From an uncultured delta proteobacterium (lineage in GTDB: Bacteria > Desulfobacterota > Binatia > UBA9968), in NCBI GenBank assembly GCA_963745835.1, contig CAVUZH010000022.1:1-64000 (forward strand): 64,000 bases of DNA. The letters are read 5' to 3'. Position 1 is the first letter of the stretch. Every line of letters begins with the position of its first letter. A program made the position numbers and the translations under genes. The notes below the pieces were generated by a model that did not search any database, had not been told where the DNA came from, and saw only the letters and a list, made by a program, of their open reading frames with translations. This document shows, in pieces, positions 1 through 10,354 of this stretch.

Positions 1-488
1 GGCCGCATCGCGGCAATCGCCGCGATCGTATCCGGCTACCTTCCGCGGGCCATTTCCATGTGTATTGTTGTGCGAAACCGATCTAGCACGTTGAGGCCGC
101 GCACAACCCTGGATGAGGGCGCTTTCGCCTCGGGGAAATCCGGTTCGATGGTCGTGATCACCCCGGACATCATTAACCGGAGGTTCTCTTGGTAACCCAT
201 CCAGAGCGCCAGTTCGTTCCCCGGTTCAAAAAGCGCGGCAAAATCGGCTTCAGGCGTTTTCGCTTGCGGCTTATCCGGCATACCGAGATACTTCACTTGC
301 TTCTTGTCGGCATCCCAGTTGTTAACCGTTAGCGTGAAAGAATCGACCTTTTCGATGCTGTCCTCATAGCTGACTTCGATCACGTCACGGACAACGTTTC
401 GCGGCATAGGATTGCCGACGCACCTGGATCTCGAAGTATGGCGCGAAAAAGTTTTCTTTTTCCTTGTAGGAATAGGCTCCGTCGTCAT
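1..488 (-). CDS. eCIS late-control-D / baseplate hub (VgrG N-terminal-like) protein, 5' part, frameshifted, runs off window edge
   Basis: ORF 36..488 has VVRDVIEVSYEDSIEKVDSFTLTVNNWD...LFEPGNELALWMGY...MMSGVITTIEPDFP, typical of CIS gpD-like proteins. The N-terminal YKEKENFFAPYFEIQV lies in another frame (385..579), implying indels. Position after the LysM tube gene fits eCIS order. Confidence 0.8.
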
Positions 489-491
489 GGC

Positions 492-1195
492 TCAGACCTT
501 CCGAGGCAGCTCGAGCACGGCTCCGATTTCCAGCACCAGCGGTTCCGTAATATTGTTGTGGTCGGCGACAACGCGCCAATCTTCCGGATCACCGTAAGCC
601 TGCCAGGCAATGGCGGGAAGCGTATCGCCGCGTCGGACAATGCGGGTTTTCGTGTGGTCGGCAGACTGTAGTTTCAACTCGGCAATTTGATCGCTGAGCG
701 TCTTATACTCTTTCAGCGACACCGAAAGTGTTGCCCGCAAGGGCACGCCTTTGGGGCTAAAGAACGTAAACCGCTGCTTGACGCTCTCCACGACGCATTT
801 AAAACCGTGCCGCCCCTGCCCACCAAGGGTGAGGTAGTTTCGATGGCCTGGAAAGTCTCATCCCCCCAACTAAACAAGAGCACGGCGGGAGCATGGGTAC
901 CGCTTTCAATTTTGATCAACTGATAGAACTCGTCGGTTTGCTTGGTGACGGATTCAGCCGATATCGTCAGTGCCTTTTCAGTCGAGTCGAAGAAAAGTTC
1001 CAGGGCCAGCGTTTCGCTCTGCCCGCGGACGAATTGCACGATCGGCGAATCCAGGCCGGGAATCGGCACTTCCGCAAAAAGCGATGCTTTGGTCAGGGTG
1101 TATTCGCCGGGGTTGTACTGCACTCTGAGAGGCTTTCCTACGGGAGTGCCCTCGGCGTTCAATCGTTGAAACTGCGCATGCCGTATCGTTAGCAT
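492..1195 (-). CDS. eCIS tube-initiator protein with C-terminal LysM (Afp7-like), split by one frameshift near 790-810
   Basis: 713..1195 gives VQYNPGEYTLTK...IPGLDSPIVQFVRGQSETLALELFFDS...PAVLLFSWG. 492..791 gives ESVKQRFTFFSPKGVPLRATLSVSLKEY plus LysM IVRRGDTLPAIAWQAYGDPEDWRVVADHNNI. Confidence 0.88.
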
Positions 1196-1382
1196 CTCTA
1201 ATCGGCTCCCAGAATGCTTTGCTTGTAGTCACGGTCGAGACTAGCCTGGGTTTCCAATGCATGGGCACCTTCAATCGCGCGATAACCGCGACAATGATTT
1301 GTTCCAGAACGCGGGGATCAAGAAAGGTTTTGCTATCGACGACGTTTACGACGCTTTCCATTTCGCCGATTTCAACATCCAT
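1196..1382 (-). CDS. small eCIS protein (Afp6-position), 3' end uncertain
   Basis: ATG at 1382 gives MDVEIGEMESVVNVVDSKTFLDPRVLEQIIVAVIARL, a short motif of the kind found between tube and LysM genes in eCIS loci. The frame runs on into the next gene, suggesting an indel. Confidence 0.6.
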
Positions 1383-1393
1383 AAGCGTTTCCC

Positions 1394-1915
1394 CTAACTG
1401 AAAAGGCTTTTTAGAGCGTCCACCACTTCCCGAGTGCCCGGTGATTGCATACGGAACCCTTCGTGAGAAATCTCCAGTTCCTCGACTGCGATTTGACCGG
1501 TCAATGCATTCATGGCCGGACCCGTCCAACGCACAGGCAGGCCGCGAGTAAAGCGCCAGATCCGTACCGGTTTGCCGTCATCGCTGAGTAGGCTGATCGT
1601 TCCGTCCCGCCGTTTGCCTCGCCCTTCGACGAACCCGAAATGCCATAGCCAAAGGTCTTGATTGAACGTGATGCCGCGGCGGAGCTTGATATTGCCGTGG
1701 GTCACTCGAGCGGGAAATTTGAGCACGCCACCGTTGCGGCCGCCTTCGCGGTATTCTTCGGCGGGCATCGTCATTTCGAGGCCACTGCACTCGAGAAATC
1801 CGGCGGCAGGAGCCAGCCCGGTCGTCAGTGCAATGGAGGTTGTTGCCGCCTTTGAATCCAGCAGCGAAACCTGGAAATTGTATCCTCGAACCGGATCTTC
1901 CCGCTTACCTACCAT
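1394..1915 (-). CDS. phage tail tube protein (T4 gp19 family, Afp5-like)
   Basis: MVGKREDPVRGYNFQV...GFLECSGLE...EYREGG...NIKLRRGI...LWLW...RRDGTISLL...WRFTRGLPVRWTGPAMNA...AVEELEISHEG is the gp19 signature. Confidence 0.93.
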   Translation of the reverse strand: MVGKREDPVRGYNFQVSLLDSKAATTSIALTTGLAPAAGFLECSGLEMTMPAEEYREGGRNGGVLKFPARVTHGNIKLRRGITFNQDLWLWHFGFVEGRGKRRDGTISLLSDDGKPVRIWRFTRGLPVRWTGPAMNALTGQIAVEELEISHEGFRMQSPGTREVVDALKSLFS

Positions 1916-9043: not shown

Positions 9044-9057
9044 GCAAGCGAGGGCCA
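9044..9057 (-). promoter_or_regulatory. candidate sigma-54 (-24/-12) promoter for the eCIS operon
   Basis: Minus strand TTTTGGCCCTCGCTTGC has TGGC...TTGC just upstream of DUF3467. GG-to-GC spacing is 9 rather than 10, with a CCC run in an indel-rich region. Confidence 0.4.
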
Positions 9058-9140
9058 AAACGGATTTTATAGATTCAACTTCTAAACGGCTGAATGAAGA
9101 ACGGATTTACGCAGTCGCTGAGATTGGGTAAACGACTCGA

Positions 9141-9162
9141 GTGTAACAGCTCGATGATACAT
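9141..9162. promoter_or_regulatory. candidate upstream activator site (GTGTAAC-N8-GATACA)
   Basis: Imperfect palindrome about 90 bp upstream of the candidate sigma-54 promoter. Same left half-site as 9328 and 10827. Confidence 0.45.
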
Positions 9163-9327
9163 CGATGCATCCGATGCACCAACGAACACTCAATCGAACC
9201 GTGATTGGATCATACGTGAGAACGACGACGAGAGTCAATAATACTCGTAACGCTTTAAGAGGTTTCGAAGTGAAAGGTGAGTTTCGGCAGATCGTTAGAT
9301 ACGTTGAAGGTAACTACTGAACGATCA

Positions 9328-9348
9328 GTGTAACGATGATTGTTACAC
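9328..9348. promoter_or_regulatory. perfect palindrome GTGTAAC-N7-GTTACAC, candidate activator binding site
   Basis: Seen directly. Overlaps the stop codon of the sigma-54 activator gene, upstream of the eCIS operon. Confidence 0.5.
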
Positions 9349-10354
9349 CTTTGTCACACGAGCGGCTAAGTTGTTACGGCCATTGTTTAAAGCGAGAGCA
9401 GCCTGTGGGTTTTCGACTGTGCTCTCTTTGATGTGATACTTTGCCATCTTGCGGTAAAGCGTCATGCGCGACCAATGCAGTCGTTCTGCGGCCTGGCTCT
9501 TGTTCCAATTGGTTTGAGACAAGGTGTACAGCAAGAGCTCACGCTCTTCGGGGTGCGGCGTCCTGGCGAGATAGGGCCGAGCAGCGCATGGACTCCGGCA
9601 GATCCGATGACGTCGATCTTTCCGCGGGGGGATCAATAAAAATGCGCTCGATGAGATTCATCAGTTCACGAATATTGCCCGGCCAATCGTAGTGTTTTAA
9701 CACCTCCATCGCTTCGTCGGTAAAGCCCTAATCTTTCCCCGCCAAAATGTGCGCTAAGTTTCTGCTGCGAAATGATCGATGAGCAGCGGAATATCTTCTT
9801 TGCGTTCGCGCAAAGGAGGCAGCTTGATCCTCGCCACATTGAGCCGAAAATAAAGGTCTTGGCGAAACCCTTTGCTTGCCATTTCCTGATCCAGGTCCCG
9901 ATTCGTCGCAGCGATGATTCTGATATTCACAGGAACACTGCGCCGGCCTCCGAGCGGATAGACTTCCTTGCTCTCGATAACCCGAAGAATCTTGGCTTGG
10001 GCGTAGGGGCTCATCTCCCCGATTTCGTCGAACAGCACTGTCCCGCCATCGGCGAGCTTCAACTTTCCCGCGTAAGATGAAACGCGCACCGGTGAACGCG
10101 CCCCTCTCGTAGCCAAACAACTCGCTTTCTAGCAGACCGTCGGGAAGAGCCGCACAGTTTATCGTGACCAGTGGTTTTGTGCTGCGTGCACTGTGCTGGT
10201 GAATATACTGAGCGGCAAGCTCCTTACCGGTTCCTGTCTCTCCTGTAATGAGCACGTGGCTGTCGGTCATCGCCACTTTTCGCAGGTATGTTTTGAGCTT
10301 CCAAATAGGCAGGCTGTTGCCGATCATCGATGATGCAGTGGAGCGTTGCGTCAT
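9343..10354 (-). CDS. sigma-54-dependent enhancer-binding protein (AAA+ plus Fis HTH, no N-terminal sensory domain visible), frameshifted
   Basis: Walker [78 protein letters not shown] (revcomp near 9665-9690), [25 protein letters not shown]. Confidence 0.93.

Follow-up and report, generated by a model that had tools for sequence, protein, structure and literature searches.

Promoter-proximal half of a probable Afp/PVC-class contractile injection system with a predicted sigma-54 switch in an uncultured soil or rhizosphere bacterium

The described extracellular contractile injection systems (eCISs) closest to the locus analysed here are Afp of Serratia entomophila and PVC of Photorhabdus, with which it shares gp19-type tubes, multiple Phage_sheath_1 sheaths, an Afp7-like LysM tube initiator, an Afp8-like hub and an Afp16-like DUF4255 cap. 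To our knowledge, the regulators described for Afp and PVC are not sigma-54 activators. Control of a contractile machine by sigma-54 and an enhancer-binding protein (bEBP) is exemplified by the VasH-type activators of type VI secretion systems (T6SSs), and our literature search combining contractile injection with RpoN or sigma54 returned T6SSs only, with no eCIS case found. Activators of this family that lack a sensor can be controlled in trans, as PspF is by PspA and HrpS by HrpV. Among eCISs, lineage II is described in PMC6899500 as having afp6, afp12, afp13 and afp14 absent or diverged.

The window, a stretch of 64,000 nucleotides from the assembly of an uncultured soil or rhizosphere bacterium (7.28 Mb, 97% complete, 9.3% contamination), opens with 11 minus-strand genes within positions 1-10354, as identified by ORF calls and a Pfam scan (Table 1). 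Contig C22 begins at base 1 and leaves no sequence to the left, and the locus is therefore truncated. Gene families and gene order support its assignment as the 5' (promoter-proximal) half of an Afp/PVC-class contractile injection system (CIS). It belongs to a catalogued kind of system, and the window copy is incomplete and error-rich. The explanation that we consider best overall, and probable, is that of an assembly-truncated, indel-laden half of an Afp/PVC-class eCIS, arranged as a sigma-54 operon in which the structural cassette was exchanged and the switch retained. A preliminary description of this DNA had claimed a same-strand run of these genes, and all 11 elements lie on the minus strand where it placed them; its eCIS identification is borne out by the DUF4255 gene together with two Phage_sheath_1 sheaths, two gp19 tubes, a LysM tube initiator and a hub.

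Table 1 Genes and candidate regulatory elements at the left end of the window.
Feature	Position	Strand	Remarks
Hub N-terminal part, ~150 aa, gp27-like half of Afp8/VgrG	1..488	-	Cut by contig end
CIS_tube + LysM tube initiator, Afp7-like	492..1195	-	Pfam 2.7e-19 and 8e-07; one frame break
Conserved small ORF, ~60 aa, Afp6 position between tube 2 and LysM tube protein	1195..1382	-	Frameshifted
Tube 2, Phage_T4_gp19	1394..1909	-	Intact; Pfam 9e-34
Sheath 2	1905..4238	-	2 frame breaks
Tube 1, Phage_T4_gp19	4238..4678	-	Intact; Pfam 4e-43
Sheath 1, Phage_sheath_1 + Phage_sheath_1C	4718..6817	-	~7 frame breaks
All-beta protein, weak CarboxypepD_reg-like (transthyretin-like) signature	6845..7947	-	E 0.009, below cut-off
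Pvc16_N/DUF4255 protein, Afp16-like tube terminator/cap	7949..8542	-	Intact; Pfam 4.6e-38
DUF3467-subfamily gene, ~81 aa	8723..8966 (ORF 8723-9001)	-	Pfam 39 bits vs cut-off 25
Sigma-54 -24/-12-like element TGGCCCTCGCTTGC	9044..9057	-	GG-to-GC spacing one base shorter than relatives' consensus
Second, imperfect palindrome TGTATCA-TCGAGC-TGTTACA	9142..9161	-	~95 nt upstream of -24/-12-like element
Enhancer-like composite palindrome TGTGACA-AAGG-TGTAACA-ATCATC-GTTACAC	9328..9358	-	Overlaps bEBP stop codon
Sigma-54 enhancer-binding protein (bEBP)	9343..10354	-	Sigma54_activat 3e-30 + 3e-29 on two pieces, HTH_8 5e-14

A genome-wide scan located both gp19 genes and the sole Pvc16_N gene of the genome in the window. 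Sequence searches of solved structures matched the tube to 7adz (5e-24) and 7b5h (2e-23), then to Pvc1 (1e-14) and Afp1 (4e-12), all of the best matches being CIS tubes, and matched the cap protein to the Pvc16-domain chains 9gts and 7b5i. We take 7adz, 7aeb and 7aef to be AlgoCIS from Algoriphagus, and 7b5h and 7b5i to be the thylakoid-anchored CIS of Anabaena; these systems give the best solved matches for the tube, the cap (7b5i) and the hub of the intact relative G005 (7aef), with tube E-values that are only moderate. For the G005 hub, the matches are to the hub parts of three solved VgrG-like CIS spikes, 9gtr, 7aef and 9rce. Pieces of both sheath genes are matched by Phage_sheath_1 and Phage_sheath_1C. 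LysM scores 0.002 in the window, below the cut-off, and 5.9e-08 in G005, and the small ORF was recognised by three-frame comparison with G005, L129, L153, L005, L168 and L195. The CarboxypepD_reg-like gene, which is lineage-specific, is interrupted by a single frame break near 7567-7603; strong matches of its positional homologues in L174, L135 and L132 back the assignment, and the G005 homologue has a low-confidence predicted fold of strung beta-sandwiches.

Sheath, gp19 tube and LysM/baseplate-type genes are common to myophage tails, and the left side beyond the contig start is unread, which leaves a little room for a prophage tail module or an R-type tailocin instead of an eCIS. We consider this exceedingly unlikely: the locus combines Pvc16_N/DUF4255 with duplicated sheath and tube genes, every solved-structure match of the tube is to a CIS, and a host-type sigma-54 switch heads the operon. 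To the right, the flanking DNA is ordinary, conserved chromosome, and head, packaging and integration genes number zero among the 39 ORFs scanned there (10.4-64 kb), in agreement with the earlier claim that capsid, terminase and integrase are absent, and zero in the 26-kb G005 contig. In intact relatives, stretches of up to 20 kb lead from the cap gene to the baseplate genes, and none of them includes a head gene. A canonical T6SS at the locus, which the preliminary description had also ruled out, was rejected: there is no TssB/TssC, Hcp, TssJLM or ClpV at the locus, and a complete T6SS set is encoded elsewhere in the genome, at C3:212-238 kb.

The same-genus genome G005 carries an intact syntenic locus on contig C380 (26 kb), with the same flanks, AKR-MFS-SBP. 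Its order is bEBP, DUF3467, DUF4255, p391, sheath, tube, sheath, tube, LysM tube and hub, followed by the distal genes Phage_base_V, gp25, Baseplate_J and Tail_P2_I/NHL; fibre-like proteins are represented by Tail_P2_I with an NHL repeat and by an 843-aa protein with a collagen-like stretch. From the set of hub/spike, gp25 and Baseplate_J, the window has the N-terminus of the hub only, and G005 has all. The window contains no Afp11 (Baseplate_J) gene, and family searches of the 97%-complete assembly found no Baseplate_J, eCIS_core or WHD-ATPase gene and gp25 solely as the T6SS copy. The Afp15-like WHD-ATPase likewise gave no family match in G005; it is present in G384, L174 and L007. The preliminary description had placed spike, baseplate, ATPase and effectors to the left of base 1, beyond the end of the contig; in G005, spike and baseplate genes do come after the hub.

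The activator at the head of the locus consists of an AAA+ sigma-54 interaction domain, a lid and HTH_8, with no N-terminal sensor domain. The window copy is broken by several single-base indels; its intact G005 ortholog has 335 aa, with AAA+ starting at residue 10, and orthologs span 334-336 aa. The GAFTGA and Walker A motifs are invariant or nearly so across 40 orthologs, and rpoN is present in the genome. Among 80 metagenome loci with the 81-aa DUF3467 subfamily, 61 were informative in having at least 500 nt of upstream sequence: the bEBP lies directly upstream of DUF3467 on the same strand in 58 and was not found in three. In 9 of 11 more distant loci headed by DUF3467, the activator carries a receiver domain, and bEBP-headed CIS loci of other subtypes carry other small ORFs and no DUF3467. 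Dedicated sigma-54 control of the locus, as claimed in the preliminary description, is supported by this cross-locus comparison rather than by the window alone.

The predicted promoter and enhancer elements recur in related loci as well. In 49 of 70 loci (G005, G384 and 47 metagenome loci), TGG-N8-TTGC precedes DUF3467 at a distance of 45-211 nt, against a background expectation of 0.038 per 480 nt, and most of the remaining loci carry GG-N10-GC variants. The window element has N7 instead of N8 spacing, which, if real, would inactivate the promoter; no aligned public contig covers 9044..9057. The composite palindrome has the same arrangement in G005. TGTAAC..GTTACA is found in 56/66 related loci and the 7-mer TGTAACA in 62/66, and the relaxed palindrome pattern is near-unique in the 7.28-Mb genome, with five occurrences of which one is at this locus. 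The second palindrome has as its G005 counterpart TGTAACA-TTTCGC-GTTACA, at -193. The only hint of expression comes from contigs, 95-99% identical, in one soil RNA library that may contain DNA.

Only three of the 11 genes (DUF4255, tube 1 and tube 2) are open in one frame, and we counted ~17 frame breaks in 10.35 kb. Together with the N7 promoter spacing, the lack of baseplate, ATPase and eCIS_core genes in the assembly, and the scarcity of close relatives of the window cassette type (the best non-self DUF4255 is 77% identical), this could be read as the decay of a dead injection-system remnant that has lost its distal half. We consider such a relic quite unlikely. Errors in the consensus are the likeliest cause of the breaks, because the extra bases are missing from short public contigs where these overlap a break, in alignments that are otherwise 99-100% identical. 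These contigs cover a minority of the ~17 breaks at depths of 2.5-26, and a difference from a single contig of depth <5 may itself be erroneous. A 151-nt contig on 4869-5023 (sheath 1) aligns with four gaps and one mismatch, and another on 742-952 (LysM tube initiator) with one gap. Breaks of the same kind occur in a housekeeping gene that neighbours the CIS genes: the adjacent MFS transporter has single-base insertions too, and at its exact frame-break sites, 12653 and 12892-12894, the extra base is absent from public contigs. The error-rich zone is continuous from base 1 to ~12.9 kb, and the first 10 kb rank 7th lowest in long-ORF cover among 716 bins, similar patches occurring elsewhere, some at contig starts. 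It also speaks against decay that the locus stops at the contig end with no deletion scar, and that the three short genes are intact with strong family scores.

Comparison of the window with G005 gave discordant identities. The flanks and switch are close (AKR 91%, MFS 92%, SBP 94%, bEBP 82-94% on unbroken pieces, DUF3467 78%), whereas the cassette is distant (DUF4255 39%, tubes 50-51%, LysM tube 53-57%, and hub 42% over G005 hub residues 53-169). This disagreement between regulator and structural-gene ancestry (78-94% vs 39-57%) suggests that the structural cassette was replaced between lineages behind a retained activator and DUF3467 switch. An assembly chimera, joining one strain's flank to another organism's cassette, would produce the same discordance in the window genome: the locus is terminal on its contig, the metagenome bin has appreciable contamination, the local consensus is poor, and no aligned public record listed spans 8542-8723. 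We judge a chimera very unlikely. The error-rich zone runs across the junction, which fits one low-coverage read set, and the reverse case is seen between independent assemblies: L152-L155 differ from G005 in bEBP (67-71%) and DUF3467 (62-65%) and resemble it in DUF4255 (95%), tube (97%) and sheaths (84-86%). Cassette exchange therefore appears to exist regardless of the window contig.

The DUF3467 gene probably starts at the ATG at 8966, which is preceded by a GAGGAG box, and its N-terminus is shifted by a 1-nt insertion near 8932. The protein, modelled as beta-beta-beta-alpha, scores above the cut-off of Pfam DUF3467 (PF11950), as does that of G005 (35.4 bits), and resembles canonical members in length and secondary structure, but the CIS-linked 81-aa subfamily reaches only E ~1e-8, against 1e-20 to 1e-30 for those members. 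CIS genes follow DUF3467 in 18 of the 23 loci with at least 3 kb downstream (16 by tblastn, plus L148 and L167 by Pfam), and tblastn and Pfam recognised no CIS gene downstream in 4 to 5 of the 23.

We wondered what such a protein might do at the head of the operon. It is possible, though doubtful, that it is a chaperone-like assembly or cargo adaptor rather than a regulator, its first place being incidental: its gene is part of the predicted sigma-54 operon, with 22-190 nt between it and the structural gene that follows (22 nt before DUF4255 in one clade), and canonical DUF3467 genes, found in 103/401 genomes, are mostly away from any bEBP, with one of 54 canonical or weak loci fetched from a phylum sample adjoining a bEBP and CIS. 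Activators with a receiver domain still retain DUF3467, and it is therefore not simply a substitute for a missing sensor. Against an adaptor, DUF3467 diverges more in step with the activator (rho 0.89 across 14 related, hence non-independent loci) than with the cap gene (0.72-0.75); DUF3467 remains with the activator across cassettes that are DUF4255-first, sheath-first, ATPase-first or begin with a non-CIS gene; and the bEBP-headed loci of other CIS subtypes have other small ORFs in its stead. A role for DUF3467 as feedback partner to the activator is a guess, to which we give no greater weight than to an adaptor.

With the window locus as an exchanged cassette behind a retained sigma-54 switch, its operation may be pictured as follows. 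The sensor-less NtrC-family activator would bind the two TGTAAC..GTTACA palindromes, ~100 and ~290 bp upstream of the -24/-12 promoter, and use ATP to open the sigma-54 holoenzyme complex. A single operon would then be transcribed, with the small DUF3467 protein first and the structural genes behind it: DUF4255 cap, beta-sandwich protein, two sheaths, two tubes, small protein, LysM tube initiator and hub, to which the operon of intact relatives adds spike, gp25, Baseplate_J and fibre-like proteins. Particles would presumably be produced and released. The machine might instead act inside its producer, in the cytoplasm or anchored to a membrane, as 7b5h among the closest solved tubes and the fact that no lysis gene was seen would allow; we find this unlikely, and the G005 fibre-like proteins after the baseplate suggest target binding. 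Over evolutionary time, the activator and DUF3467 module would be kept and the cassette behind it exchanged between lineages.

A broader and more tentative proposal is that activator and DUF3467 form a portable sigma-54 'ignition module' in several soil phyla, driving swappable CIS and occasionally other large secreted or toxin-like cassettes, with DUF3467 tuning the activator by feedback; we lean against it in this full form. If true, DUF3467 would represent a type of small activator partner not recognised before, and by swapping cassettes behind an unchanged switch a lineage could exchange its weapon and keep its trigger. A sigma-54 on-switch conserved in dozens of related soil loci may also offer a means to activate silent injection machines.

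Compared with Afp and PVC, the window locus has its cap gene first rather than last, carries an extra beta-sandwich gene and has no recognised Afp14-type tape measure, and in the intact relative the hub and the spike are each encoded by a gene of their own. Like PspF and HrpS, activators of the G005 type (334-336 aa) have AAA+, lid and HTH only, and the adjoining small-protein gene is predicted to be the first sigma-54-dependent gene, as pspA is for PspF. However, DUF3467 has no relation in sequence or fold to PspA or HrpV, and related loci pair it with receiver-bearing activators. With sigma-54-controlled T6SSs the locus shares the principle of a contractile injection machine under a cluster-encoded sigma-54 activator; it differs from them in that the machine is of the eCIS class and the activator is accompanied by a DUF3467 gene and a conserved palindrome.

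Extracellular contractile injection systems (eCIS) are catalogued by the hundreds in the text of a published survey (PMC6899500), so the machine encoded at the start of this contig is itself of a known kind, and the present copy is truncated and error-rich. What is new is the conserved module at its head, which consists of an activator (a sigma-54 enhancer-binding protein, bEBP), a palindrome, a -24/-12 element and a DUF3467 gene, together with the apparent exchange of structural cassettes behind that module. In text searches of the literature, sigma-54 or RpoN was tied to type VI secretion systems (T6SS) and never to eCIS, with the supplementary tables of eCIS surveys, which may list such regulators, outside their scope; searches of the same kind for eCIS with enhancer binding protein or NtrC returned nothing relevant, and those for DUF3467 an unrelated mention only.

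The preliminary description listed the genes at 1-10354 correctly for every item, as judged from ORF pieces and Pfam matches on the minus strand (see the table). Its assignment of the locus to the eCIS, without phage head or integrase genes, also holds: all tube matches among solved structures are contractile injection system (CIS) tubes (sequence matches to 7adz, 5e-24; 7b5h, 2e-23; Pvc1, 1e-14; Afp1, 4e-12), the cap (DUF4255/Pvc16_N) matches two Pvc16-domain chains, and no head or integrase family occurs among the 39 ORFs in the rest of the window, which encode ordinary metabolism, transport and repair. The hub of the same-genus genome G005 has sequence matches in the hub portion of VgrG-like spikes from CIS of solved structure. 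Lineage II eCIS are described in the survey text as having afp6/12/13/14 missing or divergent and as carrying subtype-specific genes of unknown function, and the extra beta-sandwich gene fits that description (PMC6899500). This protein has zero PDB sequence matches and a poor model (pLDDT 62.7, pTM 0.44, 10-row alignment); a specific fold was dropped, as the matches were generic Ig-like or transthyretin-like ones.

Features of the injection-system locus and its neighbourhood in the window
Feature	Position	Strand	Match or remark	Frame breaks
Activator	9343-10354	-	Sigma54_activat 3e-30 and 3e-29 (two pieces, different frames), HTH_8 5e-14 (Pfam)	at least 3
Palindromes	9328-9358 and 9142-9161	-	sequence
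Sigma-70-like TTGACT-18-TATGAT	9209-9238	-	between the two palindromes; not above shuffled expectation
-24/-12-like element	9044-9057	-	spacer one base short
DUF3467	next after activator	-	39 bits, cut-off 25 (Pfam)	1
Pvc16_N/DUF4255 cap	after DUF3467	-	4.6e-38 (Pfam)
Beta-sandwich protein	6845-7947, after cap	-	weak CarboxypepD_reg, E 0.009	1
Sheath 1	after beta-sandwich gene	-	Pfam	about 7
gp19 tube 1	after sheath 1	-	4e-43
Sheath 2	after tube 1	-	Pfam	2
gp19 tube 2	after sheath 2	-	9e-34
Small conserved ORF, ~60 aa	after tube 2	-	visible only by three-frame comparison with relatives	1
CIS_tube + LysM protein	after small ORF	-	Pfam	1
Hub, first ~150 residues	runs to base 1	-	42% identity to G005 hub residues 53-169	at least 1
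MFS/TLC-like transporter	12479-13835		three frames via two single-base insertions absent from public contigs

Because the window is positions 1-64000 of its contig, base 1 is the contig start, and the further genes that the preliminary description predicts to its left would lie beyond this contig. In the assembly (97.1% complete, 9.3% contamination), family scans returned no Baseplate_J, eCIS_core or WHD-type ATPase match, and tblastn with 20 G005 proteins did not find the hub, spike, gp25, Baseplate_J or fibre genes beyond the window. Matches to gp25 and GPD occur in the assembly solely within a T6SS at 212-238 kb of contig C3 (TssM, K, A, B, C, Hcp, E-F fusion, G, ClpV, VgrG), which was rejected as the missing CIS half once annotated as canonical. 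This T6SS (G000:C3:212000-238000; L202, L203) is complete; its TssE and TssF are fused (gp25 + TssF in a single 770-aa ORF), and two methyltransferase-regulatory-domain genes are embedded in it, between hcp and tssEF and after vgrG.

An intact syntenic locus is present in a relative. The cap, used as a query against 60 relatives, gave a strong match in G005 alone (41% identity) and two weak ones in other genera; cap matches occur in 4 of 61 genomes, its own included. On contig C380 of G005 the same flanks (AKR, MFS and SBP genes) are followed by an activator (335 aa), DUF3467 (81 aa), DUF4255, a 391-aa protein, a 1072-aa sheath, a tube, a 666-aa sheath, a tube, a LysM tube and a 446-aa hub, and then by a Phage_base_V spike, a 243-aa protein, gp25, Baseplate_J, Tail_P2_I with an NHL repeat and, as the final gene before the contig end, an 843-aa protein with a collagen-like stretch. 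The activator is identical to an NCBI protein labelled 'Candidatus Binatia bacterium'. Being truncated and error-rich, the window is a poor exemplar; G005:C380 and loci L153, L129, L168 and L195 are better ones.

Among the locus genes, the DUF4255 cap and the two tubes alone have a single open frame, and about 17 frame breaks were counted from ORF junctions and homologue frames. In a DNA alignment with G005 (80.5% identity, 6031 aligned columns) these are single-base indels, mostly surplus bases in the window, and two indels of the same kind, at about 12655 and 12897, split the neighbouring and highly conserved MFS gene. Public rhizosphere and soil metagenome runs hold parts of this stretch, and four were aligned to the window; some of their contigs have a depth of <5, flagged as possibly erroneous, and the best-matching run may be the source sample. 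At both MFS break sites public contigs are one base shorter, in run X1 at 12653 and in X1 and X5, with all the depth at that place, at 12892-12894. One contig of 151 nt aligned to 4869-5023 shows 1 mismatched letter and 4 gaps, and one of 212 nt on 742-952 shows 1 gap; seven further listed pieces in unbroken parts have 0-1 differences and are gap-free. The split MFS gene marks poor consensus in the contig's first ~13 kb, and the first 10 kb are the 7th lowest of 716 ten-kb bins for long-ORF cover, with similar patches elsewhere, including other contig starts. Most likely the frame breaks are consensus errors at a poorly supported contig end, a reading tested directly at the covered sites. A depth contrast (flanks above cassette in summed contig depth) was set aside, since contig depth cannot rank genes. 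Pieces 95-99% identical to the window at 469-654, 1167-1348, 3479-3668, 6147-6327 and 8621-8860 were found in RNA library X19; they were not accepted as proof of transcription.

Dedicated sigma-54 control, which had been proposed from the window's sequence, is supported by the pattern across related loci. The 81-aa DUF3467 subfamily comprises 296 clusters in a large protein collection, and a metagenome contig scan yielded 80 loci. Of the 61 loci that have at least 500 nt of sequence before DUF3467, 58 carry a bEBP immediately ahead of it on the same strand (exceptions L183, L192 and L200); in this family GAFTGA and Walker A are invariant or near-invariant, the AAA+ domain starts at residue 10 and there is no sensor domain. 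In 49 of 70 loci (those with at least 200 nt upstream, G005 and the phylum-sample genome G384 counted in) exactly one TGG-N8-TTGC stands 45-211 nt ahead of DUF3467, against a background of 61 matches per 768,040 nt (0.038 per 480 nt), and most loci without it have GG-N10-GC variants such as TGGCACGCGAAATGC. The commonest upstream 7-mer, TGTAACA/TGTTACA, is found in 62 of 66 loci, and 56 of the 66 have the palindrome TGTNAC-N5-12-GTNACA; as a rule, one copy lies ~100 nt ahead of the -24/-12 element and another where the activator gene ends. The genome also has rpoN.

The short spacer of the window's own -24/-12 element could reflect an error of the assembly or be a genuine defect, as no public contig covers the site; public contigs lack cover over 8874-9340, promoter included, and are uninformative either way. 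A relaxed palindrome occurs 5 times in all in the 7.28-Mb genome, once at the locus, a rarity that would fit a regulator with one target. Scanning 8400-10700 for sigma-70 promoters and terminators gave matches at or under shuffled expectation, and a window-wide search for TGGCAC-N5-TTGC with 2 mismatches was uninformative (56 matches, 69 expected). The activators of the more distant DUF3467-headed loci L160, L162, L167, L170, L174, L180, L184, L187 and L198 bear a receiver. Since such loci keep this N-terminal domain, the 335-aa activator of the window/G005 clade looks like a derived receiver loss. The genome has about 30 sigma-54 activator paralogues. One of them (C24:346154-347167, 36% identical) adjoins a frameshifted fragment (C24:348263-348549) whose identity to the C-terminal end of the CIS-flanking SBP gene is 78-97%; this fragment may be the trace of a duplication or come from a second strain in the bin. 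The SBP_bac_6/8-type family is very large here, with well over 100 tblastn matches on nearly all contigs.

Elsewhere the switch is mostly followed by CIS genes: where DUF3467 has at least 3 kb behind it (23 loci), tblastn found them in 16 and Pfam in two more (L148, Pvc16_N; L167, sheath). Arrangements vary: the cap may come first, or the sheath, or an ATPase with eCIS_core and a phospholipase-like gene (L174). The first gene in L124 is an SpvB/TcdB-like, Tc B-component-like ORF (1073-4267), and L187 has a WHD fragment (Afp15-type ATPase) followed by an SpvB/TcdB-like ORF (5048-7486); these two ORFs may encode cargo of the CIS, or the switch may control a distinct toxin cassette there. A 1099-aa CarboxypepD_reg protein and then BNR and PepSY genes follow in L132, a VWA/outer-membrane-barrel protein in L169 and unknown proteins in L144. 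In the phylum sample Pvc16_N is present in 19 of 401 genomes; among 19 Pvc16_N loci from 18 other genomes a bEBP is directly upstream in 4, with DUF3467 too in one (G384) and different small ORFs in its place in the remaining three. There, one or two other conserved small ORFs (L103:15034-15678, L104:11980-12686, L113:10486-10917) sit between the activator and the sheath or cap, with motifs like ...AQDTLEGIVEWWL... and ...RIRNLTQRPVIVRCNSG.... An activator plus a small protein may be a general head of bEBP-headed CIS clusters. Outside the phylum sample, a bEBP is upstream of the cap in a Kofleriaceae MAG, a 'Deltaproteobacteria' MAG and an Aminicenantes MAG, and in none of nine Paenibacillus loci.

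Switch and cassette appear to have different histories. Between the window and G005, flanks and regulators are close (AKR 91%, MFS 92%, SBP 94%, activator 82-94%, DUF3467 78%), whereas the structural genes are distant (DUF4255 39%, tubes 50-51%, LysM tube 53-57%, hub 42%), about as far from G005 as from the Kofleriaceae locus, and no counterpart of the 391-aa G005 protein is detectable in the window. Loci L152-L155 show the reverse, with activator at 67-71% and DUF3467 at 62-65% of identity to G005, and DUF4255 at 95%, tube at 97% and sheaths at 84-86%. In L129 and L138, DUF3467 is 91-94% identical to that of the window, yet the caps are G005-type or of a third type. The window-type cap is absent from all 80 loci (at most 45% identity); its relatives in the large protein collection reach 77%, 68% and lower. 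Pairwise identities of activator and DUF3467 correlate with a rho of 0.89, and those of each with the cap at 0.72-0.75, over 14 loci that are kin and not independent. A chimeric join in this contig could set regulators and cassette at odds in the window, but it would leave the reciprocal discordance between independent assemblies unexplained, and we consider it quite improbable. We think that the structural cassette was probably replaced behind a retained switch. The locus would then exemplify how injection machinery can be exchanged as a module while its place in the chromosome stays fixed.

To our knowledge, little has been established about what turns on eCIS in environmental bacteria, and most of them stay silent under laboratory conditions. 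A dedicated switch of defined sequence, made up of activator, palindromic enhancer, -24/-12 promoter and a short conserved leading gene, would offer a direct handle on them. If an intact relative of this locus received the activator in a host that has sigma-54, particles should be induced, and their target and cargo could be studied.

The place of DUF3467 in this switch is less clear. Its model is a three-stranded sheet with a long helix (beta-beta-beta-alpha, mean pLDDT 80), for which Foldseek returned nothing at E <= 0.001 (best PC4 and Pur-alpha, E about 0.2) and VIA-align a best Z of 5.4 (COMM domains, Pur-alpha, PC4), under the tool's stated chance range; no function was drawn from matches so weak and generic. 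Canonical DUF3467 is found in 103 of 401 genomes in unrelated contexts, and as 1 of 54 fetched phylum loci adjoins a CIS, the family was rejected as a general CIS marker. These other contexts count against a regulatory role, as do the receiver-domain activators in 9 of 11 more distant DUF3467-headed loci scanned. In its favour, DUF3467 accompanies the activator across cassette types, co-diverges with it and is the first predicted sigma-54-dependent gene beside a sensor-less activator. We tentatively raise the possibility, with the odds somewhat against it, that DUF3467 is a direct regulatory partner of the activator. In such an arrangement the two would resemble PspA and PspF, where the first sigma-54-dependent gene likewise lies beside a sensor-less activator.
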